Assembly (NCBI GenBank): GCA_934086485.1
Contig: CAKOIF010000001.1
Span: 55,438-119,437, forward strand
Direction of reading: 5' to 3'
DNA: 64,000 nt
Source of the DNA: an uncultured Bacilli bacterium
GTDB lineage: Bacteria > Bacillota_I > Bacilli_A > RF39 > UBA660
The notes under the pieces were generated by a model, which worked only from the letters and a program-made list of their open reading frames with translations, did no database searches and was not told the origin of the DNA. The position numbers and the translations under genes are program-made. Of this stretch, positions 2,908 to 62,247 are shown in pieces. Position 1 is the first letter of the stretch; each line of letters begins with the position of its first letter.

Positions 2908-2962
2908 ATTAGAAATTACTAGCAAAAAAAATTTGTGAAAATCTCACAAGCCCAGTTACTAT

Positions 2963-3127
2963 CTAGTATTAATTTTCATAAATTATATACTTTTAAGAAA
3001 AAGCATCCCTGTATTTATCTTATATCCATTATAATTTAACCATTTTTTTGAGCAATTTTCAAGCCCTTTTCCCGAAAATTGGTACCTAAGTTTTCCAAAA
3101 AGTATATAATTTGCGAAAGGACACCCC
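2963..3127. promoter_or_regulatory. putative invertible promoter switch, copy 1 (left arm 2963-3000, 91-bp core 3001-3091, right arm 3092-3127)
   Basis: The arms are imperfect inverted repeats. AAATTATATACTTTT (2980-2994) is exactly complementary to AAAAGTATATAATTT (3098-3112). The core is homologous to 9142-9232 and 14124-14214, and to the reverse complement of 44015-44107. Confidence 0.7.
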
Positions 3128-3153
3128 AGTATTTATAAGGGATGGAGAAGATT

Positions 3154-4107
3154 ATGATAAAAAATAATAATGTAAAAATAATGGGTATAATTGCAACTGT
3201 GTTATTACTCATAATAGTAATAACAGCATCATTTGCATACTTTGGTTCATTTAATGTAAATTTAAATAATAATGTAGCAGTAAATATTAATTCTACACCG
3301 GTAGGCAATGGAACATTTATATCAAATGCAACCCAGTTAAATTTACAAGTACCCGCAGCAAATATGAGTTCAACATCCTCAAATAATACTGTAGCTGCTG
3401 CATCAAATACTGCAACACTTTCAGTATCACTTACAAGTGGAAACGATGAAATAGAAACAACTTGTACATTTGATATATATTATGAATATACAGGAAGTAA
3501 TTTCTATGGTGTAAGTCCTAATACAAAAACAAGTGGAGCAAATAAAGAAATAACAATGACCGTAAATGCCCCAAGTGGAACAAGTAATTTTAGTACAGAA
3601 ACAAATTTTGATTATAATACCACTACTGGTTGGGTAACAGAAAATAATAAAAGAAAAGTTAAACTAGTGGAAAATGCAAGCATATCAAATTATGAAACAA
3701 CAGCAACAACCCAAGAATATACATTTACAGGCAAATATTATAATTTAGATATAAGTCAAGAACAACTAGCAAATAAATCATTTACAGGTATTATTTATGC
3801 AAGTAAGAAAGAATGTGTAAGTAAAGAAGCACCAATAACTTTTAGCATATCAAACTCTAGTGTAGTAACTACTTATTATGCAAAGAAGGGAATGACTTGG
3901 GAAGAATGGATTAATAGTGAGTATTATGATAGTAAGTCTAATATTACCATTGCAAAGGGCGATAGCGTAGTTATTATAACAACCACTGATACCGAAGTAT
4001 GCACAGATTTTATTGAAATAAACCATTCACAAACACAAAAATATAATGATGTAATTATTAATAAAATGGAATATAATATATCTTATTATGGTAGCTGCGT
4101 TGATTAA
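3154..4107 (+). CDS. membrane-anchored surface protein, paralog P1 (short form, distinct C-terminal domain)
   Basis: Start moved to ATG 3154 by analogy with the paralogs (GGAG RBS 7-8 nt upstream). Has an N-terminal hydrophobic anchor. Shares a ~200-aa module with P2/P3 (NATQLNLQVPAANMS, TTCTFDIYYEY, GKYYNL). Confidence 0.75.
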   Translation: MIKNNNVKIMGIIATVLLLIIVITASFAYFGSFNVNLNNNVAVNINSTPVGNGTFISNATQLNLQVPAANMSSTSSNNTVAAASNTATLSVSLTSGNDEIETTCTFDIYYEYTGSNFYGVSPNTKTSGANKEITMTVNAPSGTSNFSTETNFDYNTTTGWVTENNKRKVKLVENASISNYETTATTQEYTFTGKYYNLDISQEQLANKSFTGIIYASKKECVSKEAPITFSISNSSVVTTYYAKKGMTWEEWINSEYYDSKSNITIAKGDSVVIITTTDTEVCTDFIEINHSQTQKYNDVIINKMEYNISYYGSCVD

Positions 4108-6216: not shown

Positions 6217-6249
6217 TATATAAATTGTAATTGAATATTTTAATTATTA

Positions 6250-6367
6250 AATGTTTCAAAAAATATAGACATCTATAAATATTTTTGTTATATTTAATGT
6301 GCTCGAAAAAAATAATTTTTTTATAATGTAAAAAAATATAAAATCACACACCTTAGAAAGGAAACGT
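6250..6367 (+). promoter_or_regulatory. conserved promoter plus 5' leader module, copy 1 (TAGACA 6266-6271, 17-nt spacer, TATATT 6289-6294)
   Basis: The same module occurs at 27595-27715 and 33320-33444. Conserved TGCTCGAAAAAAATAA 5' end and AAAATCACACACCTTAGAAAGG 3' end containing the RBS. Confidence 0.65.
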
Positions 6368-7288
6368 ATGCAATTTAATAAATTATATGCTGAATCTGGT
6401 TTCATTAGAGATTTAGCATTCAAGAAATTATTTCTCGAAACTCCAGAGTTTCTTAACTTTGTTTATGAATACTGCCTACAACTTCTTAGTCTTCCTTTTG
6501 ATGATACAATTGATTTACTTGATAATAATGTAAATGATAATATAAATATTAAAAATAGAGAAACAGATTTACTTTACGAGTCAAAAAAATATTTAGTAAA
6601 TATCGAAGGAAATAGTCAAACTTCAATAAGCGTTAATTTAAAAAATTTATCTTATTTGTGTGCTTTACTTTTAAGACAAGTTAAACCTGGTGCGGAAGAT
6701 AAGATTAAAAATGTTATTCAAATAAATATTAATAATCATAGTCCGTTTAAAACAAAAAACTTTATAAATATTACAAAATTAATTGATAGCATTACTGGAA
6801 AGGTAAGAAATGGACAAATTGCAATCGTCGATTTTAATCTTGATTATTATGATGACATAGCATATAATGAAATTGATAGTTTACCTGATGCTGACCCAAG
6901 AAAAATATTTTATTTACTTACAAAGGAAAATAATGATAAATATTATGGGTTATATAAAAATAGTGTATTAGGGAAAATGTTAGTAAGGAGAATGGAAATG
7001 ATGATAGAAAATTTTGATGCAATATTTTATTATGATAAAGACAAATTTAATGAAAGGGTTGCAAAAGAAGTTGGTTTCGAAGAAGGAAAAGCAGTTGGTT
7101 TAAATGAAGGCAAAACAATTGGCTTAAATGAAGGAAGAAATGAAGGAATTGCCATTGGCTTAGACAAAGGCAAACGAGAAATAATTTTAAGAATGCTAAA
7201 CGATAATGTTCCAGATTTAGATATTATTAAATATTCTGGCGTTACTGAAAGTGAGCTAGAATATATTAAGGAAAGTATAGGTAAGTAA
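6368..7288 (+). CDS. Rpn/YhgA-like PD-(D/E)XK nuclease family putative transposase
   Basis: D...E.Q-type core (RETDLLYESKKYLVNIEGNSQ). Typical C-terminal EG-rich repeats (GFEEGKAVGLNEGKTIGLNEGRNEG) followed by an ML..G.S.E.I tail. Confidence 0.6.
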   Translation: MQFNKLYAESGFIRDLAFKKLFLETPEFLNFVYEYCLQLLSLPFDDTIDLLDNNVNDNINIKNRETDLLYESKKYLVNIEGNSQTSISVNLKNLSYLCALLLRQVKPGAEDKIKNVIQININNHSPFKTKNFINITKLIDSITGKVRNGQIAIVDFNLDYYDDIAYNEIDSLPDADPRKIFYLLTKENNDKYYGLYKNSVLGKMLVRRMEMMIENFDAIFYYDKDKFNERVAKEVGFEEGKAVGLNEGKTIGLNEGRNEGIAIGLDKGKREIILRMLNDNVPDLDIIKYSGVTESELEYIKESIGK

Positions 7289-9103: not shown

Positions 9104-9268
9104 CTAGTATTAGTTTTCGTAAATTATATACTTTTGAGAAAGTACATCCTCGTATTTATCTTATGTCTATTATAATTTAACCATTTTTTTGAGCAATTTT
9201 CAAGCCCTTTTATCGAAATTTGGTACCTCAATTTTCCTAAAAGTATATAATTTATGAAAGAATACCCC
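9104..9268. promoter_or_regulatory. putative invertible promoter switch, copy 2 (left arm 9104-9141, core 9142-9232, right arm 9233-9268)
   Basis: Perfectly complementary 15-mers at 9121-9135 and 9239-9253. Same architecture and orientation as copy 1. Confidence 0.7.
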
Positions 9269-9296: not shown

Positions 9297-10970
9297 ATGG
9301 AAAAAAATAATGTAAAATTAATTGGAGTATTTGCAAGCGCTTTATTACTTGCAATAATTGTAACAGCATCGTTTGCATATTTTGGTTCATTTGATACTAA
9401 TTTAACAAATAATGTAGCCGTAAATGTAAATTCAGTATCACCTGGAGATGCAACATTTACCTCAAATGCAACGCAGTTAAATTTACAAGTACCAGCGGCA
9501 AATATGAGTCAGACAGCCTCGAATAATGAAATAGCGGCAGCCTCAAATACTGCAACACTAACAGTAAATTTAACTGGAGCAGCAAACTTGCTTACAACTT
9601 GTACATATGATATAGTTTATGAATATGATAGTACCTCAAATGTATATGGTAAAAGTCCGACTACAAAAAATGGTAACAAAGAAATAACATTACAAGTATC
9701 AAATGTAAATGGAACAAATAACTTTGCAAATGAAAAGAACTTTGATTATGATTCAAGTTGGAGTGGACTAAAAAGAACTCTAGTAAGTGGAGCAACAATA
9801 TCAAGTAATGGCTCGCTTACTACTCAAAATATATCAATAACTGGAAAGTATTATAACTTAACAATATCACAATCTTCTTTAGAGGGAAAAGCTTTTACAG
9901 GAAAAATATATGTAACAAATCATAGTTGTAGTACAAGTGAACCAGCATATATAACATTATTGAATAAGTATGGTGGAAAAGATAGTATAACAGAGCTTCC
10001 AGATAGTGCCTTTGAAAATGTATCTACCGCAAGTGATAAAGGTATGTATGCAAAAGCTGATGATTATACTGCAACAACAGGAATGAAATCTTACTATTAC
10101 AGAGGTGCCGTAGATAATAACTGGGTACAATTTGGAAAAGAAGGAGATAAAGATATATACTGGAGAATAATAAGAATTAATGGCGATGGAAGTATAAGGA
10201 TGATATACTCTGGTACAACAAAACCAGAAAGTGGTACAGCGGCAGTAATGACTGGAACAGGTACTCAAATAAGCACAAGTTTCTTTAATAGTAGTAGAGA
10301 TAAAGCAGAGTATGTCGGTTATCAGTATATAGAAGGACAACAACATGGTTATGGAAAATGTAATGGAACAAGTGCAAGCTGTACGGTAAATGAAAATACA
10401 GTATATAATAGTGCAATAAAACAGGCAATAGATAAGTGGTATGAAGGAACAACATTAGAAAAAGATGTAGCAACAAAACCATTAGTATCACAAGACCAAA
10501 TATTCTGTAATGATAGAAGTGCATCATCAACCCAATCAGCAGCTTGGACATCAACAGGAGCTACATATTACTATGGAGCATATGGAAGATTAACACAATC
10601 TACAAAAAGCCCACAATTAACTTGTCCTGAAGAAAATGATAAATTTACATTAAAGGAAAGTAGTATAGGAAATAAAGCGTTAGAATACCCAGTGGGACTT
10701 ATAACAGCGGATGAAGTAGCAATGGCAGGTGGAGTAGTTGGCGCAGGTAATAGTTCATATTACTTGTATACAAACCAAGTATATTGGTCGGGGTCGCCTT
10801 ATAATTTCAGTTCTAGTGGAGGTACTCGGGAATTTATTGCGATTTCTTCAGGTTACCTTGACCATAGTAGTGTGAATATTTATCGTGGCGCCCGTCCCGT
10901 CATAAGTTTATCCTCTTCAGTTAAATTATCGGGCAGTGGAACATATGATGATGTGTATGTAGTAAGCTAG
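9297..10970 (+). CDS. membrane-anchored surface protein, paralog P2 (long form)
   Basis: N-terminal anchor plus the module shared with P1/P3. C-terminal domain is shared with P3 and distantly with P4 (YWRIIRINGDGSIRMIYSG, IFCNDR, ARPVISLSS..GSGT). Confidence 0.8.
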   Translation: MEKNNVKLIGVFASALLLAIIVTASFAYFGSFDTNLTNNVAVNVNSVSPGDATFTSNATQLNLQVPAANMSQTASNNEIAAASNTATLTVNLTGAANLLTTCTYDIVYEYDSTSNVYGKSPTTKNGNKEITLQVSNVNGTNNFANEKNFDYDSSWSGLKRTLVSGATISSNGSLTTQNISITGKYYNLTISQSSLEGKAFTGKIYVTNHSCSTSEPAYITLLNKYGGKDSITELPDSAFENVSTASDKGMYAKADDYTATTGMKSYYYRGAVDNNWVQFGKEGDKDIYWRIIRINGDGSIRMIYSGTTKPESGTAAVMTGTGTQISTSFFNSSRDKAEYVGYQYIEGQQHGYGKCNGTSASCTVNENTVYNSAIKQAIDKWYEGTTLEKDVATKPLVSQDQIFCNDRSASSTQSAAWTSTGATYYYGAYGRLTQSTKSPQLTCPEENDKFTLKESSIGNKALEYPVGLITADEVAMAGGVVGAGNSSYYLYTNQVYWSGSPYNFSSSGGTREFIAISSGYLDHSSVNIYRGARPVISLSSSVKLSGSGTYDDVYVVS

Positions 10971-11060: not shown

Positions 11061-12917
11061 ATGTCTTTATTAATTGTAATTATAACATCTGTTATAATGG
11101 GACTACTTCCAACAGGGATAAAATATTTATCTGTAATGGCAAGCAATCTACTTCCTAAAAATTTAAAGCATAAATATCAAAATAGTAGTTTTTATTTAAA
11201 AAAGTATAGAGAAGTTTATGATATAGCTATTTCTTTGAAGTTTAGTGATAAATTCAAACTAGGCTTAATAAGTAAAAAAGTCCTTAAAAAAATGACTTCT
11301 TTAGATTTGATTGATATTGTGGATAATTTAAAATATGATGAAAATAAACTTAAATTTCTTTTGAAAAGTGAAGTTTTAAAAAACTTATTTAAAATGGATA
11401 GTAAAATAACCTTTAATGATAAAAATTTTTATGAATCACTATATAATAGTGTAAATGATGATGAAAAAATAAATCTGCTTACTCACATAAATAATGATGA
11501 ATTTGTAATAGAAAAATATGATCATTTAAAGAAAAAATTAAGTGATAAGAATAAATGTAAAATTATATGTTCATTAGAAAATGATGATAATAAGACAAAA
11601 CTTATTAATGATGTAAAAATTGAAAGTTTGACATATCAAATTCTTTGTACATATAAAAGTTTTGAAAAAGTTGAGAATTATTTATTGTCTTTAAAAGATT
11701 TATATCAATATTATTTAGTAAAACTTATGAGTGAGGAAGAAATTATAAGACTTCTTGAGAAAAATTTATTAATTAAACAAATATTAAGATGTACAAATAA
11801 TAAAGAAAGGTTTAATACTTATTTTTCATATCTTTCCTTAAAAGATCAAATAGATGTTTTAAAAATAAATCCTAATAGTGAAATGGTTTTATCAACATAT
11901 TTAAATATAAAAGATATGCTTAATGAAAAAGAAAAATTAGAAATTTTAGTAAATATTCTAAAAAATGGTGATGAGAATATTAAAAAAGAAGCATTTAATT
12001 ATTTACCAAACTCCGTAATAAAGGATATTATTTTAACAAATGAAGAAAAACATAGTGATGAGAATGTTAAATTATATAATGGTGTTTCTGATAAAGTAAC
12101 TTTTGGCGTAGAACTTGAATCATCGCATAAAGATAGTTTATTAATTAAAAAGTTAAGTACAATAAACTCTAATTGGATTTTAAAAGGAGATAGTTCAATT
12201 AAGGGAGGAGTGGAAATAGTTTCACCAATACTTCATTATGATAAAAAATCCTTAATGAATTTAAAATATGTTTGTGATTTTATGGAAGCAAATAATTTTG
12301 AGGTAACAAATGAGTGTGGTGGACATATTCATATTGGCTTTGACTTTTTTGACAATGTTAAAGAACTAGAAATGCTTTATATGATATATGGCAATGCTCA
12401 AGATATTTTCTTTGATATATGTAATCGTAAGGGTTCTATCCAAAGACCTAAATTATTAGATTATGCTAAACCTATTACGAGTAAATTATATTTAGCAATT
12501 ATTACTCATAAATTTGATGATAATATAAATTTAAATGCTTTTGTTAAAGAAATGAAAGAATTACAATCAGGTAGATTTTTTGATATAAATATATTAAATG
12601 CCCAAAGTAAATTGAAAAATACAATTGAATTTAGATTTCCAAATGGAGAAATTAATTATGAAGAAGTTTTACTTAATATTACTTTGATTATAAAACTTTG
12701 TATGGCTGCGAAAAAATATGCAAGTATAAATTGTTATGATGAAAAATATTCAGTAATTAAACTTTTACAGTGTGAGACAAATAAAGATACTAGAAAAAAC
12801 ATTTTATTTAAAATTCTTTTTGATAATGACGAGATGCTTAAAAATATTTATAATGAAAGATATGAAGCAAATAATAAAGAAGATGTTTTTGAAAGAAGAT
12901 TTGTAATTGATTTTTAA
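11061..12917 (+). CDS. amidoligase-domain protein (Amidoligase_2-like) with long helical N-terminal region, paralog A1
   Basis: C-terminal motifs FGVELES, GGVEIVSP, CGGHIHIG and IEFRFPNG. Paralog of 41630..43405. Confidence 0.6.
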   Translation: MSLLIVIITSVIMGLLPTGIKYLSVMASNLLPKNLKHKYQNSSFYLKKYREVYDIAISLKFSDKFKLGLISKKVLKKMTSLDLIDIVDNLKYDENKLKFLLKSEVLKNLFKMDSKITFNDKNFYESLYNSVNDDEKINLLTHINNDEFVIEKYDHLKKKLSDKNKCKIICSLENDDNKTKLINDVKIESLTYQILCTYKSFEKVENYLLSLKDLYQYYLVKLMSEEEIIRLLEKNLLIKQILRCTNNKERFNTYFSYLSLKDQIDVLKINPNSEMVLSTYLNIKDMLNEKEKLEILVNILKNGDENIKKEAFNYLPNSVIKDIILTNEEKHSDENVKLYNGVSDKVTFGVELESSHKDSLLIKKLSTINSNWILKGDSSIKGGVEIVSPILHYDKKSLMNLKYVCDFMEANNFEVTNECGGHIHIGFDFFDNVKELEMLYMIYGNAQDIFFDICNRKGSIQRPKLLDYAKPITSKLYLAIITHKFDDNINLNAFVKEMKELQSGRFFDINILNAQSKLKNTIEFRFPNGEINYEEVLLNITLIIKLCMAAKKYASINCYDEKYSVIKLLQCETNKDTRKNILFKILFDNDEMLKNIYNERYEANNKEDVFERRFVIDF

Positions 12918-14085: not shown

Positions 14086-14250
14086 CTAGCATCAGTTTTC
14101 CTATATCATATACTTTTGAGAAAAATCATCCTAGTATTTATGCTATCATCAATATAATTTAATCATTTTTTTGAGTGATTTTCAAGTCCTTTTCCCGAAA
14201 ATTGGTACCTCTATTTTCCTAAAAGTATATGATTTGTGAAAATAGACCAT
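14086..14250. promoter_or_regulatory. putative invertible promoter switch, copy 3 (left arm 14086-14123, core 14124-14214, right arm 14215-14250)
   Basis: ATCATATACTTTT (14105-14117) is exactly complementary to AAAAGTATATGAT (14221-14233). The substitution relative to copies 1 and 2 is present in both arms. Confidence 0.7.
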
Positions 14251-16613: not shown

Positions 16614-17642
16614 ATGAAAAAAGTTTTAAAAAATATCTTGAAAGTTTTATCTTTTATTGGAGTATTTATATTAATGGTTGTATTTACTTTGAATGCATCA
16701 TTACTTCTTATATGTTATGGTCCAAGTAAATCTGCAAGAAATATATTTACAACAACATTTTTAGAGACAGGTGCTTTTAAATTTGTTGTTCATTTAGTAC
16801 TTCCTAGTAAGACAATTAATGAAATAGTAAATAGTAACTCTTTAAAAGACTTAAATAAAGATGTTGATAGTAGTTTAATTGATGTTAATAACGAAAATAA
16901 AAAAGATATTAAAATCGAAGAGGTTAACGGAAGTAATTTCCATGGAACTATGATGATAATTAGTGATCCATCAAGAGTTAAAGTTGCGACTACTGCACCA
17001 TTTTCTGAATATGGTAAAACTCTTGATGAAATAGTTAAGGAAAATGATGCTATTGGTGGAGTAAATGGTGGTATTTATGTATCTACTCTTAATAAAGGTG
17101 GGTATCCAATGGGTGTTGTTGTTTCAAAAGGTGAAATAGTTTGGAATAGTCCAAATGGTGTTGGTTATCATTTAATTGGTTTTGATGAAAATAATATTTT
17201 AAAAATACTTCCTTTACAAGGACTTGATAAAAGTGGAGTAGAAAAACTTGTAAAAGAGGAAAAAATAAGAGATGCAGTTACTTTCCAAGAGGAAGCAAGT
17301 GATGCAAATAATCACTTTGTAAAACTTATTATTAATGGCGAAAAAAGAGAAAGTAATGGTCTTGGAAGTGGAGCAAATCCTCGTACAGCAATTGGCCAAA
17401 AAGCTGATGGAACAGTCTTACTTCTTGTTACAGATGGAAGAGGAGCATCAGGTCATCTTGGTGCTACAGCATCAGACCTAATTGAAGTTATGGAAAAATA
17501 CGGCGCTGTAAATGCTGCGAATCTTGATGGAGGGTCTTCCTCAACAATGTATTACGAAAATAAATATTTAATGACTTCGGTAACTTTATATTATTCAAAT
17601 TCATCTTGGCGTTTACCTGAGGCATTTATTATAGAAAAGTAG
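16614..17642 (+). CDS. phosphodiester glycosidase family protein (NAGPA/DUF2233-like)
   Basis: N-terminal TM segment. Motifs PRTAIGQKADGTVLLLVTDGR and NLDGGSSSTMYY. Confidence 0.7.
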   Translation: MKKVLKNILKVLSFIGVFILMVVFTLNASLLLICYGPSKSARNIFTTTFLETGAFKFVVHLVLPSKTINEIVNSNSLKDLNKDVDSSLIDVNNENKKDIKIEEVNGSNFHGTMMIISDPSRVKVATTAPFSEYGKTLDEIVKENDAIGGVNGGIYVSTLNKGGYPMGVVVSKGEIVWNSPNGVGYHLIGFDENNILKILPLQGLDKSGVEKLVKEEKIRDAVTFQEEASDANNHFVKLIINGEKRESNGLGSGANPRTAIGQKADGTVLLLVTDGRGASGHLGATASDLIEVMEKYGAVNAANLDGGSSSTMYYENKYLMTSVTLYYSNSSWRLPEAFIIEK

Positions 17643-20549: not shown

Positions 20550-20599
20550 TTAAATATGCTAGCAGCAAATATATGTTCGATATTAGAAAAGGAGGAATT

Positions 20600-21190
20600 A
20601 TGTTATTAGAGCTTGAAAATCATTTAAACTCAAAATATCAAGATGTTACAAACTATGTTATAAAAAAATCACAAACAAGCAATAATTTTATTAAGGAAAT
20701 TAATAAATATTTAAATTACAATGTTAATAACGCTAAATTTGATAAACGTGACATTGGAAAATTAGAAAAAATGACATTGTTAAATATTCAGAACATTATC
20801 GGAGGAAGTTTTATTTTGATACATAGAGTACAAATTGAAAATGTATCTACGCCAGATGCGAAATATATAAATAAAAATATTTTTAATGGTTCAAAGTATT
20901 TTGAAATTAAATCTCCAAAGAAAAGTTTAAATGAAAACTCTAAATTAAAGAAAATATATAGGCAGTTAGATGAAGCAAAACATCAGTCAAATAATGTGAT
21001 AATATCTTTACTTAGAGATGAATGTGATTTAAGTAATGAAGAAGCCAATTTACAAATAATTAATTGCTTAAATAATATCAGATATCATTGGATTGATACT
21101 ATCATTTTAATTGGCAAAAGTAATTATATAAAAATATACAAAAAAAGAAAGAACCTTAACGGAATGCCATTGTGGTCCTTTCTTTTATAA
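20600..21190 (+). CDS. hypothetical protein with possible PD-(D/E)XK-like motif
   Basis: Start moved to ATG 20600 (AAAGGAGG RBS). Segment PDAKY...YFEIKSP resembles a D..ExK nuclease core. This is a weak call. Confidence 0.4.
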   Translation: MLLELENHLNSKYQDVTNYVIKKSQTSNNFIKEINKYLNYNVNNAKFDKRDIGKLEKMTLLNIQNIIGGSFILIHRVQIENVSTPDAKYINKNIFNGSKYFEIKSPKKSLNENSKLKKIYRQLDEAKHQSNNVIISLLRDECDLSNEEANLQIINCLNNIRYHWIDTIILIGKSNYIKIYKKRKNLNGMPLWSFLL

Positions 21191-26434: not shown

Positions 26435-27586
26435 ATGAAATTAAAAGTAGGTTTTATTTATGGGGGTATTAGTACAGAACACGAAATTAGCATAATAAGT
26501 GCACTTCAGGCGATAAATAATATGAATATAGATAAATATGACGTAGTACCTATATATTTGTCTAAAAATGGTGTTTTTTACACTGGAAAATATTTATTAA
26601 ATATTGATAACTATAAGGATTTAAGTTTAATACCTAAAAAATGCAAAGAAGTATCAATAATTAAAAAGAATAATGACTTTGCTTTATTAAGTGTTAATTT
26701 TCCTCATAAAATATTAGCTACTATTGATATTTTCTTTCCGGTTGTTCACGGCTATAATGTTGAGGATGGTTCTATCGCAGGATTTTTGGAAACTATTGGG
26801 GCTCCATATGCTGAAAGTGACTTATATGCAAGTTTAATTGGCCAAGATAAAGTAATTCAAAAAATGGTTTTCAAGGAAAATGAAATAAATGTTGTTCCAT
26901 ATACTTATTTTTATGAAAATGAATATCTTGATAATGAAGAAGAAATAATCTCTAAAATTAATGAACTTTCTTTTCCGGTAATTGTTAAACCTGCAAGACT
27001 TGGAAGTAGTGTAGGGATTAGCATTGCTGCAGATGAAGTTTCCTTAAAAGAGGCAATTAATGAAGCCTTAAAATATGATGAAAAAATAATCGTTGAAAAA
27101 GTCATTGAAAATCTAAAGGAATTAAACTGCTCTGTACTCGGAGATAAAGACTTATATAAACCCTCTTTAATCGAAGAGGTTAGTGCTAAAGAAAATATTC
27201 TTTCTTACGAAGATAAATATATTTCTGGTAGCAAGTCAAAAGGTATGGCAAGTGCAAGTAGAAAAGTTCCTGCCGATATTTCAAAGAAGTTAACCAAAGA
27301 AATAGAAAATATGAGTGTAAGAGCCTGTAAAGCCCTTAATACAAGTGGAATAGTTCGAATTGATTATTTATATGATACAAAAAATGAAAAGGTATATTTA
27401 AATGAAATTAATATTATTCCAGGATCACTATCATTTTATTTATGGAAAGATACTAAATATAAAGATTTACTAGCAAGTATTATTGAACTAGGAATTAAAA
27501 AATATAAAATTAAATCTAAAAAACAAACTAGTTTTGAAACTAATGTATTACAAAATTTTAATGGTACAAAAGGAATAAAAAAATAA
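26435..27586 (+). CDS. ddl: D-alanine--D-alanine ligase
   Basis: ATP-grasp protein (GGISTEHEISIISA, FPVVHG, EDGSIAGFLE, SSVGIS, LNEINIIPG). ATG 26435 is preferred over 26429 because of RBS spacing. Confidence 0.9.
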   Translation: MKLKVGFIYGGISTEHEISIISALQAINNMNIDKYDVVPIYLSKNGVFYTGKYLLNIDNYKDLSLIPKKCKEVSIIKKNNDFALLSVNFPHKILATIDIFFPVVHGYNVEDGSIAGFLETIGAPYAESDLYASLIGQDKVIQKMVFKENEINVVPYTYFYENEYLDNEEEIISKINELSFPVIVKPARLGSSVGISIAADEVSLKEAINEALKYDEKIIVEKVIENLKELNCSVLGDKDLYKPSLIEEVSAKENILSYEDKYISGSKSKGMASASRKVPADISKKLTKEIENMSVRACKALNTSGIVRIDYLYDTKNEKVYLNEINIIPGSLSFYLWKDTKYKDLLASIIELGIKKYKIKSKKQTSFETNVLQNFNGTKGIKK

Positions 27587-27594
27587 ATTACAAT

Positions 27595-27715
27595 TTTTCT
27601 ATAGACAATGTAACATAAATATGATATATTTAATTTGCTCGAAAAAAATAAATTTTTTTGTGAGCATTTTTTTTGCAAAAAAATTTTAAAATCACATACC
27701 TTAGAAAGGATACAT
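27595..27715 (+). promoter_or_regulatory. conserved promoter plus 5' leader module, copy 2 (TAGACA 27602-27607, 17-nt spacer, TATATT 27625-27630)
   Basis: Same -35/-10 and the same TTGCTCGAAAAAAATAA and AAAATCACATACCTTAGAAAGG blocks as at 6250-6367 and 33320-33444. Confidence 0.65.
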
Positions 27716-28990
27716 ATGAAAAAAATAATAATAATTTTAATAACAATTTTTGCTTTTACTACAAATATAAATGCACTAGAAAATATAAGTTATTCAATAA
27801 GTGGAACAAATAAGTCACTTTGTTCAAAAGATGGAAAGATTTTTCTAGAGATACCTTCGATTGATCTTGATGGAAAAGAATCATACATTTTAAAACCAAT
27901 GGAAAGTTTTAATACAAATTTAAAAACATATGAATATGCAAAATATTCAAATTATGATTTACCCGAAGATCTAAAAGATTATTTTTATGCTTTTCTAGAG
28001 TATAAAAATATTCCTGGAATAAGCCATAGTAATTATCACGTTTTAACACAAAGACTTATTTGGGATTATTTATATCCAGAATTGGAAATAAGATTTTGTA
28101 CAAGACAAGGTAAAACATTTGAGTTTCTCGAGGAGGAATATTATCAGGTAAAAGATATGATTACTTTAGTAGTAAATGGACCAGAATTTTTTAATAGTGA
28201 TAATTACTTACTTGAAAATAAAGAATACACTTTTGAATTTAAATATTTAGATAGATTTTATTTAGTTTCAAAACCTGATGACTTAAATGTTAAAATTTAT
28301 GATAATAAACTATTTGTAAGTGGTCCAAAAGGAAAATATCAGTTAGTATTTAAGAAAAAACCTCTTGAAAATAAACCTTTTATTTCAGAAAGAATTATAT
28401 CTGATGGACAAAATGAAGTATTTTCTTACAGTAATTTTAATGATAAAGAATATAAAATGAATATTATAATTGATAGTGTAAATTTAAATATATTAATTCT
28501 TGATGTAAATAATAAATCATTAACTGACAAATGCATAATTTTACAAAATGAAAAAGAATATTTATCATATTGTACAAATGAAAATGGTATTATTAATGCT
28601 AAAGGTTTACTTAAGGGAAAATATAATATTTTATTCGAAGAAACTAATGAATATGAAAAAATAAGTCAAGATATTGATTTAAATAGTGATTCAATGGTTA
28701 AATTAAAATTAATACCTAAAAATAAAGATAATGAAGATAATATTATTAATAATGATAATAACAATAATAGTGATAATAATCAAAATATTAATGATAATTT
28801 AAATAATAATGAAAACAGCAATACTGATAATGAAGAAATAAGCCTTATTCCAGTTAATGGTAAAGAAAATACTAATGAAGACTATTTAATATTCAAAGAT
28901 ACTTTATCTATAAATAAGTTTTATATTGTAGCTATAGTATTTATCTTCTTAACAGCGGTGGTATTTTGCATCAAAAGATTAAAAAAATAA
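27716..28990 (+). CDS. cell-surface protein with C-terminal membrane anchor/sorting-like signal
   Basis: Start at ATG 27716 after the conserved RBS. Has a signal peptide, a Cna-B/prealbumin-like segment and an N/D-rich linker. C-terminus is a hydrophobic helix plus KRLKK. Confidence 0.7.
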   Translation: MKKIIIILITIFAFTTNINALENISYSISGTNKSLCSKDGKIFLEIPSIDLDGKESYILKPMESFNTNLKTYEYAKYSNYDLPEDLKDYFYAFLEYKNIPGISHSNYHVLTQRLIWDYLYPELEIRFCTRQGKTFEFLEEEYYQVKDMITLVVNGPEFFNSDNYLLENKEYTFEFKYLDRFYLVSKPDDLNVKIYDNKLFVSGPKGKYQLVFKKKPLENKPFISERIISDGQNEVFSYSNFNDKEYKMNIIIDSVNLNILILDVNNKSLTDKCIILQNEKEYLSYCTNENGIINAKGLLKGKYNILFEETNEYEKISQDIDLNSDSMVKLKLIPKNKDNEDNIINNDNNNNSDNNQNINDNLNNNENSNTDNEEISLIPVNGKENTNEDYLIFKDTLSINKFYIVAIVFIFLTAVVFCIKRLKK

Positions 28991-33281: not shown

Positions 33282-33319
33282 ATTTTTTCACCTATTTAAT
33301 TATATGATAAAAGTTTATT

Positions 33320-33444
33320 AAATGTTTCAAAAAACATAGACAATAGTAATTATTTTTGATATATTTAATTTGCTCGGAAAAAATAAGTTCTTTATATGTA
33401 ATAAAATGACTTTAAAATCACACACCTTAGAAAGGTATATAACT
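33320..33444 (+). promoter_or_regulatory. conserved promoter plus 5' leader module, copy 3 (TAGACA 33337-33342, 17-nt spacer, TATATT 33360-33365)
   Basis: Homologous to 6250-6367, including the upstream AAATGTTTCAAAAAA block. Confidence 0.65.
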
Positions 33445-34307
33445 ATGTTTAATAATCTTTACTCTAATTCAGGATTCCTACTTGATTTAGCTTTTAAAAA
33501 AATATTTCTTGAAACACCACAACTACTTAACTATGTATATAATTATACCTTAGAATTACTTGATCTACCAATAGACAATAGTATTCATTTACTTGATAAC
33601 AATGTAAATGATAATATAAATATTAAAAATAGAGAATCAGATTTACTTTATGAATCAGATAATTATTTAGTAAATATCGAAGGCAATTGTCAAACTTCAA
33701 TAAGTGTTAATTTAAAAACTTATCATATCTATGTGCTTTACTTTTAAGACAGGTAAAACCTAGTGATGCGGATAAAGTTAAAAAAGTATTGCAAATTAAT
33801 ATAAATAATAAAAGTCCGTTTAAAACAAAAAATTTTATAAATATAACTGAATTAATTGATAGTATAACTAATGAAGTAAGAAATGAACTTTTTTTTATAG
33901 TCGATTTTAATCTTGAAAATAGTTATAATATGACATATAATGAAATTGCTAGTTTACCGGGTGATGACCCAAGAAAGATATTTTATGTATTTACAAGTGA
34001 AAATAATGATAAATATTATGAGTTATATAAAAATAATAAACTAGGTCAATTAATATTAAGGAGGATGGAATATATGGTAGAAAATTTTGATGCAATATTT
34101 TATTATGATATAGATAAATTTAATGAGCAAGTAGCCAAAGAAGTTGGTTTTGAAGAAGGTAAAACTGCAGGAATGGCTATTGGTATAGACAAAGGCAAAA
34201 AAGAAATAATTTTAAATCTACTAAAAGCAGGGATGAATGAATTAGATATTATGAAGTACTTAGGTATCACTGAAAGTGATCTTGAGGAAATTACAAAGTG
34301 TAAGTAA
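33445..34307 (+). pseudogene. Rpn/YhgA-like nuclease paralog, frameshifted
   Basis: Collinear with 6368..7288 but split into two frames (33445-33747 and 33789-34307). There is a one-nt difference in an A tract (A5 at 33714-33718 versus A6 in the intact copy). Confidence 0.7.
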
Positions 34308-43993: not shown

Positions 43994-44142
43994 TTTTTCA
44001 TTTACAGTATATAAATTTAGTACATGAATTTTATGGAAAAAGGGCTTGAAAATCACTCAAAAAAATGGTTAAATTAAAATAGATATAAGGTAAATACAAG
44101 GGTTCTCTTTCTCAAATGTTTAAGATAAGAGAAAAATGACCC
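43994..44142. promoter_or_regulatory. switch copy 4 with core in the opposite orientation (core about 44015-44107) and degenerate arms
   Basis: 44015-44107 matches the reverse complement of cores 1-3 (GGGCTTGAAAATCACTCAAAAAAATGGTTAAATT...). The downstream CCCAAGTATTTATAAGGGATTGGAG RBS block keeps the same orientation as in copies 1-3. Confidence 0.7.
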
Positions 44143-44171: not shown

Positions 44172-45575
44172 ATGAAAAATAAAAAGGTATATGTAATTTT
44201 AATAGTTCTTATTTTAATTGGAAGTATATTTTTAACTTATAATATTTATCAAAATAAAAATAAAGTAATTAAAACTAAAAAAAATAAACAAAATAATTTA
44301 GCAATAATGATTAAGGAAGATGGAGCAACTGATTATACAAAATCAAATTCAAAAGATATACCTAAAGGAAATTATGTATTAAATAGAGATAAAAGTTATT
44401 GCAAAAATAATGGTAAAATAGGTAATTATGATAGCTCTTTAGGTAAGGTTAGTTTTTTATTTATAGGTTCAGATAACTGCTATTTATATTTTGATTATAA
44501 AGATAATCCGCCAGAAATATTAAATGTTTCGGTAACTGGTAAAATATTAACTGCAGATTTAACGGATGATAATAATTTATCAGGATATGCAGTAAATACG
44601 AGTAATGTTACTCCATCCTCTTGGACTAGTATTTCCGGAAAAAACTATAAATTAAATATTACAATTTCTACTCCTGGTACTTATTATTTATGGGTAAAAG
44701 ATAATTCAAATAATATAACTAAATATGAAAATATTATTATAAATAAAACCGCTAGTGATATTATTGTTGCAAAATCCGAGACGAATTATTCAATTGTTTC
44801 AGAAAATGGGCTTAGATATGAGGGTGCTAGTCCTGATAATTACATATGTCTTGATAATAATACAAGTGGCAGTTGCTCAAATACTAATTTATTATTTAGA
44901 ATAATAGGCCTATTTGAGGAGGAATATTCTTTGGATGGGACAAATAGTGCCGGTAAAACTAATATGATTAAAGTTATTAAACCAACTCATTATGCAACTT
45001 CGTATTGGCATTCATCAAGAAATAATGATTGGTCAAATTCAGATATTAAAAAAGCATTAAATGAAACATACTTGACTGAACTTCTTTCATTAAATAGCAA
45101 TATTGAAAATAAAATTGTAAATGCAAAATGGTATTTAGGAGCTAAAGATACTAGTGACACTAACGACACAAATAATTCTGTTAACAATTATTATAGTGAT
45201 GAACGTTCTACTGAATATATATTATATAACCGAAGTGCATATGCTTTTGCAAAAGTTGGATTATTATATCCGAGTGATTGGGGATATGCTGCAATTTATA
45301 CTAAATGTAGTCGAAGCTGGTCAATGTTTGTAACTGGATACGGAAAATATTCAGGATGTGATTCAAATAATTGGCTTGGCTATAGTAGTAATGAATGGTT
45401 ATTAACACCTCAAGTTTCATATGAAGCAAGCGCTGCAGTTAAATCAACAAAAAGATACGTTGATAAATATGATGTAAATGGTTATAAATTCGCATATCGT
45501 CCAGTATTATATTTAGATGCAAGTTATGCAATGATTGGATCTGGCACTGAATCTGATCCATATCGTTTGGTGTAA
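44172..45575 (+). CDS. membrane-anchored surface protein, paralog P4 (different N-terminal module, related C-terminal domain)
   Basis: Start at ATG 44172 after the GGAG RBS. Has an N-terminal TM segment. The C-terminal region parallels P2/P3 (LLFRIIGL, VGLLYPSD, AYRPVLYLDAS..GSGTESDPYRLV). Confidence 0.75.
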   Translation: MKNKKVYVILIVLILIGSIFLTYNIYQNKNKVIKTKKNKQNNLAIMIKEDGATDYTKSNSKDIPKGNYVLNRDKSYCKNNGKIGNYDSSLGKVSFLFIGSDNCYLYFDYKDNPPEILNVSVTGKILTADLTDDNNLSGYAVNTSNVTPSSWTSISGKNYKLNITISTPGTYYLWVKDNSNNITKYENIIINKTASDIIVAKSETNYSIVSENGLRYEGASPDNYICLDNNTSGSCSNTNLLFRIIGLFEEEYSLDGTNSAGKTNMIKVIKPTHYATSYWHSSRNNDWSNSDIKKALNETYLTELLSLNSNIENKIVNAKWYLGAKDTSDTNDTNNSVNNYYSDERSTEYILYNRSAYAFAKVGLLYPSDWGYAAIYTKCSRSWSMFVTGYGKYSGCDSNNWLGYSSNEWLLTPQVSYEASAAVKSTKRYVDKYDVNGYKFAYRPVLYLDASYAMIGSGTESDPYRLV

Positions 45576-51386: not shown

Positions 51387-51656
51387 ATGAATACTATTGA
51401 TTATTTAATAACAGCTGATGGTGTAATTGAAAGAGGGATATTTTACAATTATATGCATAATTTAGGTTTTAAAGATAATATAAATCTTACAAGAGAATAT
51501 ATGATAAATAGTGATTATCCTTTTGGAGTTTGCTTGAAAAATAAGGAAATGATGGTAATTGAAAGTGCTACTAATTGTTATTTAATGCAGAAAAATAATA
51601 AAGTAAAAACTGTGGAAGAATTTAAAAAGATAATAAATCTATTAAATATAAAATAA
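51387..51656 (+). CDS. hypothetical protein
   Basis: 89-aa ORF with GGGAGG RBS. Confidence 0.45.
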   Translation: MNTIDYLITADGVIERGIFYNYMHNLGFKDNINLTREYMINSDYPFGVCLKNKEMMVIESATNCYLMQKNNKVKTVEEFKKIINLLNIK

Positions 51657-54855: not shown

Positions 54856-54897
54856 TAATATACAAATTATAAAATGTGAAAGGAGTTAGTTTTTTTA

Positions 54898-55005
54898 TAA
54901 TAGCGCATGGCCTATTTAGGTGACGAGGACTTACATTGTCGATTTATCAGCGGATATGTAAGCGGAGCAGTTTTACTTCGGAAAATACTTTAAAAAAATA
55001 AAATC
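54898..55005 (+). ncRNA. glmS ribozyme: glmS ribozyme (GlcN6P-dependent self-cleaving leader)
   Basis: A/GCGC cleavage-site context at 54902-54906. Conserved core GGTGACGAGGA..TGTCGATTTATCAGCGGATATG with complementary CTTACA/TGTAAG arms. Lies directly upstream of glmS. Boundaries are approximate. Confidence 0.8.
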
Positions 55006-55051
55006 AAAATTATAACAAAGAGGTATTTAATAAAACAAGAAAGGAATTTTT

Positions 55052-56803
55052 ATGTGTGGAATTGTAGGTTACAAAGGTAATCAAAATAGCATTCCTGTTT
55101 TATTAAATGGGTTAAAATCTTTAGAATATAGAGGCTATGATTCAGCAGGACTTGCTTATATAAACGGGGGTAAAATAACAATTAAAAAAGCTATAGGAAG
55201 GGTTAAAAATCTTGAGAATTTAGTTACTAACGAAGACTATGGAAATATTGGTATTGCTCATACAAGATGGGCAACTCATGGGGGAGTAACAGATAAAAAT
55301 GCTCATCCTCATAAACAAGGTAAAATAACTTTAGTACATAATGGTATTATTGAAAATTATAAAGAACTAAGTGAAAAGATTGATACAAAATTATTAAGTG
55401 AAACTGATACAGAAATATTATGTGCTTATATAAATAAGTTATATAATGAAAATCACAATATGCTTAAGACTTTAGCAAAACTTAAAAATGATATAAAGGG
55501 TAGTTATGCACTTGCAATAATTAATGAAGATGAACCAGATACTTTATATGGGGTTCGTAAAAATGTACCATTAATACTCGCTAAAAACGATAATGAATAT
55601 TTTTTAGTATCTGATATGACTGCAGCACTTAAATATACAAATAAATTTTATTTACTTGAAAATGATGAAATTGTTAAAATTTCTGATAAAGAATATATTT
55701 ATGATAGTGATCTTAATCTATTAAAGAAAGAACTTTTAACTTTTGAGGGAACAAGTAATGATGTTATGCTTAAGGGTTATCCTCATTTTATGTTAAAGGA
55801 AATTCATGAAGAACCAATGGTTATTAATAATATTTTATCTTATTATTTAACTGATGGTAAGTTTAATGAAAATATGCCTGAATTTAAAAAATATAAAAAT
55901 ATTTATTTTGTAGGATGTGGAAGTGCTAGTTATACTGCAGACATTGCTAAAAAAGTATTTGAAAATTATGCAAATATTAAATGTGAAGTATTTTTAGCAA
56001 GTGAATTTAGATATCAAAAACATTTTTATGATAAAGATACATTAGTTGTATTTATTTCACAGTCAGGAGAAACTGCGGACACTTTAGAGGCTCTTAGAAT
56101 TACTAAAAGTGATGGTATAGATACATTAGCTATTGTTAATGTAGTGGGTTCTTCGATTGCTAGGGAAGCAGGTAAAGTATTATATATTAAAGCAGGAACT
56201 GAAATAGCTGTGGCCACGACAAAAGCATTTACAGCCCAATATTTACTTCTTACACTTATTGCTCTTAAAATGGCTGGTATAAATGATTTAAGCAAGTTTT
56301 ATAAAATAAATGAAGCATTAGAAACTGTATTTGCTATAGACTTTCAAAAATATGCAGAAAAAATATATACTAAAAAAGATGCGTTCTTTATTGGTAGGGG
56401 AATAGATTATGGTTTATGTGAAGAGGGAAGTCTTAAGTTAAAGGAAATAAGTTATATAAACTCGTCTGCATTTGCTTCTGGAGAACTTAAACATGGTACT
56501 ATATCATTAATTGAAAAAGATACTCCAGTTATGGGAATAATAACTGATGATAATCTTGCTCTAAAAACAATTAGTAATATAAAAGAGGTTCATGCAAGGG
56601 GAGCATATAGTTTATTTATTACAAGTTTAGATATTGATGGTGACTTTTATGATGATAAAATTAAAGTACCTCATATAAATAATTATATTGATCCTATTTT
56701 AATTGTGGCAAGTTTGCAACTTCTTGCATATAATGTTGCTCTTTTAAAAGGCGAGGATATAGATAAACCAAGAAATTTAGCTAAAAGTGTTACTGTGGAA
56801 TAA
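55052..56803 (+). CDS. glmS: glutamine--fructose-6-phosphate aminotransferase
   Basis: Begins MCGIVGY (N-terminal Cys), has two SIS domains and ends KSVTVE. Confidence 0.95.
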   Translation: MCGIVGYKGNQNSIPVLLNGLKSLEYRGYDSAGLAYINGGKITIKKAIGRVKNLENLVTNEDYGNIGIAHTRWATHGGVTDKNAHPHKQGKITLVHNGIIENYKELSEKIDTKLLSETDTEILCAYINKLYNENHNMLKTLAKLKNDIKGSYALAIINEDEPDTLYGVRKNVPLILAKNDNEYFLVSDMTAALKYTNKFYLLENDEIVKISDKEYIYDSDLNLLKKELLTFEGTSNDVMLKGYPHFMLKEIHEEPMVINNILSYYLTDGKFNENMPEFKKYKNIYFVGCGSASYTADIAKKVFENYANIKCEVFLASEFRYQKHFYDKDTLVVFISQSGETADTLEALRITKSDGIDTLAIVNVVGSSIAREAGKVLYIKAGTEIAVATTKAFTAQYLLLTLIALKMAGINDLSKFYKINEALETVFAIDFQKYAEKIYTKKDAFFIGRGIDYGLCEEGSLKLKEISYINSSAFASGELKHGTISLIEKDTPVMGIITDDNLALKTISNIKEVHARGAYSLFITSLDIDGDFYDDKIKVPHINNYIDPILIVASLQLLAYNVALLKGEDIDKPRNLAKSVTVE

Positions 56804-56830
56804 AGTAGCACTTTTTTCATATTATTAATT

Positions 56831-57349
56831 ATGGATTTAATTATTAGTTTTTTATTTGTTTCTATTATTGGCACGCTTTTTCATTTTACATACGATTATT
56901 TTAATCATAATAAGGTTGCATCAATTTTTTCGGCAGTTAATGAAAGTACGTGGGAACATATTAAGATGGGACTTTCATCAGCACTTTTATTTAGTATTTT
57001 TGATGGATTTAAATATGGTAAAATTGGTACATATTTTTTTGCTAAATCAGTAAGTTTACTTATGATAATCTTGATTATACCCATACTTTTTTATGGTTTT
57101 AAATTACTTTTTAAACGAAGTTTTCTTATTATAGATATCTTAATATTTTATATTGCTACATTTTTAAGTTCTTATTTATTTTTCTATATAATCAGAAATA
57201 TTAAAGAAATATATATTTTAAATTATATTGGTTGCATTGTGTTATTTATTATATTTAGTTTATATTTACTTTTTACAATTATGCCACTCAAAAATGAATT
57301 ATTTTTAGATCCAATTACTAAAAAATATGGTTTAGATAGCAAAAGATAG
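56831..57349 (+). CDS. integral membrane protein of unknown function
   Basis: 172 aa with 4-5 TM helices. Confidence 0.55.
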   Translation: MDLIISFLFVSIIGTLFHFTYDYFNHNKVASIFSAVNESTWEHIKMGLSSALLFSIFDGFKYGKIGTYFFAKSVSLLMIILIIPILFYGFKLLFKRSFLIIDILIFYIATFLSSYLFFYIIRNIKEIYILNYIGCIVLFIIFSLYLLFTIMPLKNELFLDPITKKYGLDSKR

Positions 57350-57384
57350 TTTTATCATTTTAATTATTATGATAAACTATTGTT

Positions 57385-58119
57385 ATGAAGAAAGTATTTT
57401 TTATTATTAATATTATTTTATGTGTTATATCATTTTTATATGGAATATCTATTTTAAATGTAAATTCAGGTACTCTTTTTTACTTAATTTGGTTTTTAAT
57501 TAGTGCATTTTTTATTATTATAGATTTACTTATTTACTTTAAAGTATTTGAAAAATATAAAGTTTTTAAAAAAATTTTTATCTGGGTATGTTCTATTGGA
57601 ATTTGCATATTTTTAGTTATTCTTAGTTTGATTATAAGTAAAATGAATGTAAAAGTAGTAAAAAACTTGGATTATATTATCGTTTTAGGTGCTCAAGTTA
57701 AAGAAAGTGGCCCTAGTGTAGTTTTAAGATATCGACTTGATAGAGCAGTAAGTTATTTAAAAGAAAATGATAATACTTTAGTAATAGTTTCTGGTGGGCA
57801 AGGTGCAAATGAAAAAGCTACCGAAGCAAGTGTTATGAAAGAATATCTAATTAATAAAGGTATAAATGAAGATAGAATTATTATTGAAGATCAAAGTAAT
57901 ACCACTAAAGAGAATTTAATTAATTCTAAAAAAATAATTGGTAATGACAAATCTATAGGAATAGTTACAAATAATTTTCATATGTATAGAGCCCTTTTGA
58001 TAGGAAAAAAGTATGGAGTTAATGCAGTAGGTATTCCCTCAAAATCTAATAGTTATTACCTTCCTAACAACCTTTTAAGGGAAGTATTTGCATATATAAA
58101 GTTTATTATATTAGGGTAA
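57385..58119 (+). CDS. YdcF/DUF218-family protein with N-terminal TM segments
   Basis: IIVLGAQV..VSGGQG..E motif typical of the DUF218 (SanA/ElyC-like) family. Confidence 0.7.
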   Translation: MKKVFFIINIILCVISFLYGISILNVNSGTLFYLIWFLISAFFIIIDLLIYFKVFEKYKVFKKIFIWVCSIGICIFLVILSLIISKMNVKVVKNLDYIIVLGAQVKESGPSVVLRYRLDRAVSYLKENDNTLVIVSGGQGANEKATEASVMKEYLINKGINEDRIIIEDQSNTTKENLINSKKIIGNDKSIGIVTNNFHMYRALLIGKKYGVNAVGIPSKSNSYYLPNNLLREVFAYIKFIILG

Positions 58120-58171
58120 TTGAATTTATCCTTTTTTTATGGTACAATAATTTCACTTTATGGGGGTAATT

Positions 58172-61402: not shown

Positions 61403-61417
61403 AGTCTAAACTTTTTT
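61377..61417 (+). repeat. 41-bp perfect direct repeat, copy A (contains stop and terminator hairpin)
   Basis: AAAAAAATAGAAGTTTAGAAATGTAAAGTCTAAACTTTTTT is identical to 62147-62187. Contains the AGTTTAGA..TCTAAACT hairpin plus T run. Confidence 0.9.
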
Positions 61418-61481
61418 AATTTATAAGTTTAAATTTATAATGATTTATGTTATACTACTTGTAGTTATTCAGGAGGTTATA

Positions 61482-62156: not shown

Positions 62157-62187
62157 AAGTTTAGAAATGTAAAGTCTAAACTTTTTT
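62147..62187 (+). repeat. 41-bp perfect direct repeat, copy B
   Basis: Identical to 61377-61417. Confidence 0.9.
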
Positions 62188-62247
62188 TAATATTTAATTG
62201 AAAAAATGTATAAAATATAATATACTTAATTTAGATAGGAGGACAAA

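Follow-up and report, generated by a model that had tools for sequence, protein, structure and literature searches.

A housekeeping region with four paralogous genes

The window, by which we mean the whole 64-kb stretch of DNA analysed here, is a chromosomal housekeeping stretch with 25% G+C and 75% A+T. It contains nusB, xseAB, tig, spoIVB, lon, a murE/F-like ligase gene, ddl, dnaG, sigA, comEA/EC, ackA, a glmS ribozyme and glmS. The contigs related to the window are labelled as uncultured Bacilli from the human gut. Four paralogous genes, designated P1 to P4, are dispersed among these genes, and each of them is located 3' of a conserved upstream region of about 240 nt.

3154 to 4107, plus strand: P1, 317 aa, with an N-terminal membrane helix and without the C-terminal domain of P2-P4 (short member)
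9297 to 10970, plus strand: P2, 557 aa
14278 to 16017, plus strand: P3, 579 aa counted from the ATG at 14278
44172 to 45575, plus strand: P4, 467 aa

All four proteins comprise an N-terminal membrane helix, followed by a remainder which is predicted to be beta-rich in a model of low confidence (the AlphaFold model of P2 has a poor pLDDT of 45.7). In Pfam, NCBIfam and the PDB sequences no match to the P proteins was found. A search with P2 at E <= 1e-5 revealed more than 6,200 proteins related to it, of which the best 120 are just 76-98% identical to P2. The family consists of membrane-anchored or secreted proteins of an uncultured low-G+C lineage of Bacilli, which is common in metagenomes of the human gut, Hadza samples among them. 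Judged by these sequence features, the P proteins would fit contingency surface proteins.

Architecture of the switches

The upstream regions of P1, P2 and P3 each contain a unit of about 147 bp, in which two 29-bp arms in inverted orientation enclose a core of about 90-100 bp. The core (about 90 bp) contains no ORF. These units are called switches 1 to 3 in the following; the related unit before P4 is described separately below. The term 'toward' is used for a core promoter which faces the P gene and 'away' for the opposite state.

2924 to 2949, minus strand: leftward terminator-like hairpin just outside the switch 1 left arm, with the stem TTGTGA/TCACAA at 2933-2949 and a T8 run at 2924-2931
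2973 to 3001: switch 1 left arm, TTTTCATAAAT / TATATAC / TTTTAAGAAAA, complementary to the right arm at 24 of 29 positions, spacer 7/7
3002 to 3090: switch 1 core, invertible, here in the away state
3091 to 3119: switch 1 right arm, TTTTCCAAAAA / GTATATA / ATTTGCGAAAG
3120 to 3153, plus strand: switch 1 leader outside the switch, conserved CCCCAGTATTTATAAGGGAT, then the RBS GGAG at 3144-3147 and the ATG at 3154
9114 to 9260: switch 2, away state, arms at 9114-9142 and 9232-9260
14096 to 14242: switch 3, away state, arms at 14096-14124 and 14214-14242, spacers CATATAC/GTATATG

Each arm is composed of an 11-nt half-site (YTTTCNNAAAW), an asymmetric spacer of 7 nt, which is GTATATA or GTATATG in copies 1-3, and a second 11-nt half-site in inverted orientation. 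In copies 1-3 the arms of a switch are complementary at 22-27 of 29 positions, and their spacers are identical at 7 of 7 positions, as they are in all intact copies. Outside the right arm of the switches the leader CCCCAGTATTTATAAGGGAT is invariant and is followed by the RBS and the ATG. At copy 4 the core of switch 1 is found again as its reverse complement (2973-3078 against 44030-44135, 80%). The hairpin on the left side was recognized by RNAfold of the leftward transcript at switch 1, and a comparable hairpin with a T-run adjoins copy 3 and many related loci. Its position and sequence suggest that it would stop transcripts which leave the switch leftward.

A motif of the type CCC(A/T)GTATTTA (CCCAGTATTTA) occurs three times per switch, namely outside the left arm, within the core and outside the right arm. 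In copy 1 it is located at 2951-2963, 3008-3017 and 3126-3135, and equivalents are present in copies 2-4. Both the core copy and the right copy lie 8 nt from a GAAAA half-site, and these two copies are complementary to each other when the switch is in the toward state. Furthermore, switches 1 and 2 share identical 14-nt arm words (2980-2993/9121-9134 and 3099-3112/9240-9253), so recombination between the two switches, leading to an inversion or a deletion of 6.1 kb, is conceivable. Collinearity is preserved in all places shown for this strain.

A conserved probable promoter within the core

According to the earlier note, TTGAAA-N17-TTAAAT is read from the minus strand ahead of P1-P3 and from the plus strand ahead of P4, and exactly this arrangement is present.

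3034 to 3062, minus strand: switch 1 core promoter, -35 TTGAAA at 3062-3057, 17 nt, TGG and TTAAAT at 3042-3034, facing away from P1
9175 to 9203, minus strand: switch 2 core promoter, TTGAAA-N17-TTAAAT, facing away from P2
14157 to 14185, minus strand: switch 3 core promoter, TTGAAA-N17-TTAAAT, facing away from P3

Within the window the pattern matches four times, only at the switches, against 0.53 matches expected, and none of 100 shuffles reached four. A single promoter-like match is not above chance in such A+T-rich DNA (3 against 2.6 expected; 4 against 2.2). The significance of the core promoter is due to its exact fourfold recurrence together with its conservation in related loci, and not to any single match. 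A TATAAT directly after TTAAAT, which had been claimed for all copies, exists in copies 1 and 2, whereas copy 3 reads TATATT and copy 4 TAAAAT at this place. Common to all four copies is a TGn extended -10 directly 5' of TTAAAT. This hexamer carries a T at position 2 (-11), where the canonical -10 has an A, for which reason a promoter scanner calls TTGAAA-18-TAAATT instead.

In the cores of family A the block CTTGAAAAT..CTCAAAAAAATG.TTAAAT is the best-conserved part. Four diverged core types keep the hexamer positions and the 17-nt spacing (TTGAAA/TTAAAT, TAGATT/TATAAT, TAGTCA/TATTAT and TAGAAA/TAGAAT); the sequence of the spacer differs among them, and TGn is frequent. The conservation of hexamers and spacing around a freely varying spacer is the signature of a promoter and not that of a protein-binding block. 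Together with the comparative evidence given below, this pattern strongly suggests that the core promoter is a sigma-A-type payload which would drive a gene in one orientation only. Upstream of copies 1-3 only co-directional housekeeping genes with their terminators are found, so an away-facing core promoter has no gene to drive.

When genome contigs were scanned for the promoter pattern, only two MAG contigs matched. In the reference MAG L001 the left half of a switch is masked by a run of N (3544-3713).

Inversion in natural populations

Metagenome contigs were scanned with an anchor located outside the switch, which yielded 59 human-gut loci; due to the position of the anchor these matches are unbiased with respect to content and orientation of the core. 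The inversion of the core in nature is proven at an orthologous locus of the copy-3 type. Two contigs from different samples, L015 and L037, are identical over 8,261 nt upstream of the switch, followed by a block of 103 nt which is the exact reverse complement in one relative to the other and which is enclosed by a perfect inverted repeat of 13 nt (ATCATATACTTTT / AAAAGTATATGAT). Past the inverted block another 342 nt, reaching into the gene, are identical. Both orientations are thus represented at this orthologous locus.

The gene behind this switch is conserved only in its first part. Between L015 (8707-10075) and L037 (reverse strand) the P3-type gene is 100% identical over its initial 285 nt, and beyond them the mismatches climb from 4 to 69 per 100 nt. 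This course of divergence suggests a recombinational replacement of the part that would code for the ectodomain.

The majority of the 59 loci belongs to a sister family, family B, with the arm spacer GTATAAG. Here as well both states are observed at near-identical loci, for example in the pairs L011/L012, L053/L059 and L022/L036. In comparison to L011 the spacer of L012 is changed from GTATAAG to GTTTAAG, and this change is matched in both arms, which fits a need for spacer identity. Mixed switch states within samples are found among the 59 loci. In the assemblies of the strain of the window itself, each of the 23 places shown for P1-P3 has its switch in the away state.

Eight contigs (L008, L016, L027, L052, L060, L061, L076 and L078) break off inside the switch, as is expected from assemblers at repeats of mixed orientation; promoter invertons would thus also account for the contig breaks at these loci. 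The contig L009 begins with a Nextera/Tn5 adapter (positions 1-35, …AGATGTGTATAAGAGACAG) joined to a switch core and is an assembly chimera, the formation of which was probably helped by the likeness of the adapter to the family-B arm ATGTATAAGA.

The broken switch before P4

43994 to 44023: switch 4 left pseudo-arm, degenerate TTTTTCATTTACAGTATATAAATTTAGTAC, not complementary to the right arm (15/30)
44046 to 44074, plus strand: switch 4 core promoter, TTGAAA-17-TGG TTAAAT, family-A core, facing P4
44107 to 44135: switch 4 right arm, sister type, CTTTCTCAAAT / GTTTAAG / ATAAGAGAAAA

Copy 4 had been regarded as the same element on the plus strand. That is true for the core promoter, but the right arm is of another type and no matching left arm exists. 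The right arm belongs to family B, and its spacer GTTTAAG is identical to that of L012. An inverted partner of this arm could not be identified in the window, and the word ATCTTAAACATTT is absent throughout the 64 kb. The possibility that copy 4 is a normal switch which is currently ON was considered and rejected, since its arms do not match.

The transcription start of P4 is predicted near 44081-44083, which would result in a leader of about 90 nt. An identical P4 protein is encoded on 18 contigs, and the orientation of the switch is the same in three of the three places shown. Because its switch is without a partner arm in the window, P4 is best read as locked ON and not as the selected member of a one-at-a-time set.

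Decayed switches point to the probable ON orientation

The state of each switch was assigned from alignment scores and the integrity of the arms was scored separately, before both were combined. The arms are intact in 25 of 25 away-state instances. The 32 toward-state instances, in contrast, include 12 with intact arms and 20 decayed ones, which represent at least four classes of lesions. In the first class the left arm is lost and the upstream terminator is fused to the -35 of the core (two different junctions), the second is a deletion of 4 nt from the spacer of the left arm, found at several different loci, the third consists of substitutions in the right-arm spacer, and the fourth comprises chimeric arms (L029 and copy 4 of the window). 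The association of decay with orientation is significant in Fisher tests on instances (p = 2e-7) and on unique sequences (p = 6e-5). Some of the decayed loci share a common origin and are not independent events; if just four independent decay events are counted, the probability is still 0.01-0.06.

The genes behind the decayed toward switches are intact: full length (467-599 aa) is retained in all 14 of them whose reading frame can be followed to its stop. Truncated ORFs with a known switch state (L004, L009, L042 and the short P1) are located behind away switches. A related strain (L088) has undergone a deletion of P1 together with the right arm, and a remnant of an away-state core is fused to the NrtR promoter (12290-12565); P2 of the same contig lacks both the switch and the 5' half of the gene, of which 195 aa remain (17430-17500). 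All decayed switches are frozen toward an intact gene and all away switches are intact, which argues for the toward state as most likely the ON state.

We therefore favor, with a probability of roughly 0.75, the reading that each gene possesses its own inverton, that the core promoter switches the gene ON when it faces it, and that P1-P3 are OFF and P4 is locked ON. According to this reading, a recombinase encoded elsewhere would exchange strands within the identical spacers and thereby flip the core. In the toward state the core promoter would give rise to an mRNA, the leader of which, about 90 nt long, runs through the right arm into the conserved leader and the RBS, so that the gene would be ON. 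In the away state transcripts would go leftward into the terminator-like hairpin beside the left arm, and the gene, lacking an adequate promoter, would be OFF. P1-P3 would be OFF as the population majority in this assembly, and P4 would be constitutively ON, its switch having lost the matching left arm.

The assignment of P4 as ON and of P1-P3 as OFF agrees with the core-promoter reading of the earlier note and is the better supported of its two readings, given the natural inversion, the conservation of the promoter and the decayed switches facing intact genes. Its interpretation as a one-of-several pattern typical of antigenic variation is not supported in the form proposed: the switch of P4 is defective and appears fixed ON, and the switches seem to act independently for each gene. 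In other genomes several switches face their genes at once, which indicates an independent ON/OFF decision per gene.

Competing readings of the two orientations

The earlier note had also pointed to a hybrid promoter in the other orientation, the elements of which are indeed found at the positions given for them.

3079 to 3108, plus strand: candidate hybrid promoter, TTGGTA at 3079-3084 in the core, 18 nt, TATATA at 3103-3108 in the right-arm spacer

The proposal that it would make copies 1-3 ON is weakened by a missing T at -7, by the variability of the -35 and by the loss of the element in locked variants. For promoters of the sigma-70 family, including sigma-A, a T at -7 and an A at -11 are essential.

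If the core promoter and the hybrid one were active side by side, an inversion would replace a strong promoter with a long leader by a weak promoter with a short leader, and P1-P3 would be expressed at a LOW level and not be OFF. Each of the four core types does carry a -35-like hexamer at the same place, separated by 17-18 nt from the spacer of the arm (TTGGTA/TTGGGA, TAGGCA/TAGACA, AGGACA and TTGGTA), and the dominance of the away state in every assembly of this strain would be compatible with some expression in that state. However, the paired -10 (TATATA or TATAAG) has no T at -7, the positions of the hybrid -35 vary where those of the core promoter stay fixed, and the scanner does not call the hybrid promoter. 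Moreover, locked variants in which the hybrid -35 is deleted still have intact genes. We consider simultaneous activity of both promoters unlikely. About as doubtful, and perhaps slightly more so, is a related idea, in which the switch would be a bidirectional device with two outputs, formed by back-to-back promoters in the core amid the triple CCCAGTATTTA motif, and expression would be graded rather than binary. Should this apply, inversion would replace a strong promoter, the leader of which is structured and contains the arm, by the weak hybrid with a short leader, and CCCAGTATTTA could be the site of a regulator or an accessory protein which couples expression to the direction of recombination.

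A more radical alternative takes the hybrid as the real promoter, with the away state as ON, P1-P3 expressed and the core 'promoter' serving another role, for example as a protein-binding site. The recurrence of the hybrid -35 at the same position speaks for it, and away as the normal expressed state would fit the constant away orientation of P1-P3 in this strain. The T at -11 in the family-A TTAAAT counts against the core promoter, unless the 18-nt spacer (TAAATT) is used. Under this assumption, however, 20 of 20 decayed switches would be frozen OFF, yet their genes are full length, and it is behind away switches that gene deletions, and truncated ORFs where the state is known, are found. The conservation of the core block, with hexamers and spacing kept and the spacer free, is likewise that of a promoter. 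Expression from the hybrid alone is for these reasons improbable.

A leader switch of the cwpV type, with a promoter outside the switch and an orientation-dependent terminator or RBS-masking structure in the leader, is very improbable. In the toward state AAATAC..GGG of the core is complementary to CCC..GTATTT of the flank, and a long leader hairpin of -12 to -23 kcal/mol is predicted by RNAfold. Against this stand the lack of a promoter conserved upstream of the left arm, the terminators of the upstream genes which precede the switches, and the terminator which directly abuts the core -35 in the locked loci; the hairpin itself has no U-run, no informative covariation and no Rfam match. RNAalifold gave one compensatory pair for it, which lies within the arm half-sites, and the 3' side was fixed by the search anchor, so the leader hairpin was not used as evidence. 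In Rfam no family matches at the switches, the sole match in the window being the glmS ribozyme.

That the two states are not programmed at all, and arose as artefacts of assembly or by separate insertions of a small repeat element, can practically be dismissed: short inverted repeats can mislead assemblers, and L009 is an adapter chimera, but the exact reverse complement lies between identical flanks of 8.2 kb and 342 nt, dozens of independent assemblies contain the same states, and the spacer change is matched in both arms.

The recombinase

The core sites of tyrosine recombinases (lox, FRT, dif, fim) consist of two inverted half-sites around an asymmetric spacer of 6-8 bp, which is identical between partners. 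At the level of layout the 11-7-11 arms of the switches with their partner-identical spacers correspond to such sites, and from this layout we infer that the flipping enzyme is a tyrosine recombinase. A Pfam scan of all sizeable ORFs of the window, six near the right end excepted (51387-51656, 55052-62802), revealed no recombinase, and an invertase is also absent from the 10 kb upstream of the window. Motif scans of all ORFs of at least 120 aa in the window and in the 59 loci identified a single Xer-like protein, encoded in L024, and in none of the loci scanned was there a resolvase-type motif. The Xer-like protein was rejected as the invertase, as it is a housekeeping XerD located beside a deoB-like gene. 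The recombinase may be encoded elsewhere in the genome.

Relation to known invertible systems

The well known fimS of E. coli, which is inverted by FimB and FimE, is a single switch of 314 bp with inverted repeats of 9 bp and adjoining recombinase genes. It resembles the switches described here in that the short invertible segment contains the promoter and ON means an orientation toward the structural gene, and in layout, because the tyrosine recombinases of fimS use half-sites around a short spacer. The units described here, in contrast, are about 147 bp long, are present in many copies and have no adjacent recombinase. The hin system of Salmonella has hix sites of 26 bp with a 2-bp crossover, and an invertase gene and an enhancer are located inside the segment of about 1 kb. 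An invertible promoter segment is common to both systems, but none of the other features of hin, and hence of serine invertases of the Hin/Gin kind, is found at the P loci.

The RecV switches of C. difficile (cwpV, flgB) are similar in that they belong to a member of the Bacillota with several short switches, and RecV is one distant tyrosine recombinase. They act after initiation, through a leader terminator or Rho and with the promoter outside, whereas the promoter of the P switches lies within the core; neither a conserved upstream promoter nor a leader hairpin with a U-run is present here.

In Bacteroides fragilis and other Bacteroidales the loci for capsular polysaccharides and surface proteins carry invertible promoters, which are inverted by the global invertase Mpi and by tyrosine recombinases, and such 'invertons' have been surveyed by PhaseFinder and DeepInverton (PMC11602134, PMC11892184). 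Many dispersed promoters, similar inverted repeats, invertases encoded elsewhere and surface structures of a gut commensal are shared features (PMC2268961, PMC11602134, PMC11892184). The phylum is a different one, and the switches described here have sigma-A -35/-10 elements, 11-7-11 arms and single genes instead of long operons. Compared with invertons in general, flanking inverted repeats are present at copies 1-3 and missing at copy 4, both orientations occur in nature, and a dedicated recombinase was not found in the regions searched (window, 10 kb upstream, 59 loci).

Systems in which promoter inversion controls many genes are thus already known, and on the features compared the closest analogue of the P1-P4 switches is mpl (P35) of M. 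penetrans. According to summaries of the work of Horino et al. (2003, 2009), most members of this family of 38 lipoprotein genes are believed to have an invertible promoter next to them and to be switched independently of each other, and the recombination has been described as the work of one tyrosine recombinase (PMC2268961, PMC3599477). As far as these two sources outline the mpl system, the likeness extends to a large paralogous family of surface proteins in a low-G+C genome of the Bacillota type, to genes dispersed over several chromosomal places, and to an adjacent promoter for most genes with independent ON/OFF control; the mpl recombinase is also encoded outside each switch and serves many sites. 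The four copies of the window and the 59 related loci, with their mixed states within samples, show the same organization. The host, in contrast, is an uncultured, spore-forming (SpoIVB) gut member of the Bacilli. By the description of mpl in these sources, the P proteins are also set apart as probably unrelated, as not being lipoproteins and as having no Pfam or NCBIfam family, and the arms seem to differ in sequence, with at least two spacer classes here.

The switch would govern a very large and fast-diverging protein family. With the ON orientation and the assignment of one inverton per gene, existing metagenomes could be read as maps of surface expression states, and the natural locked-ON variants would be ready-made controls. 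The existence of arm classes which differ in their spacers suggests how a genome may avoid recombination between its many switches.

Other elements in the window

A second family of repeated leaders or promoters was observed at 6244-6373, 27580-27721 and 33315-33447, which consists of TAGACA-17-TATATT followed by AAAATCACACACCTTAGAAAGG and precedes the ORFs 6368-7288, 27635-28990 and 33370-34307. The first and the third of these ORFs encode paralogs which are about 80% identical and have no family assignment, and a sortase gene is located 3' of ORF 27635-28990. The glmS ribozyme (54891-55037, plus strand; Rfam RF00234, 56.4 bits) lies directly 5' of glmS (55052-56803) and is ordinary. Paralogs with an Amidoligase_2 domain are encoded downstream of P2 (11061-12917) and upstream of P4 (41630-43405). 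Small ORFs with a CdiA C-terminal toxin-like domain are present in the window (20573-21190) as well as in L024 (6556-7068).
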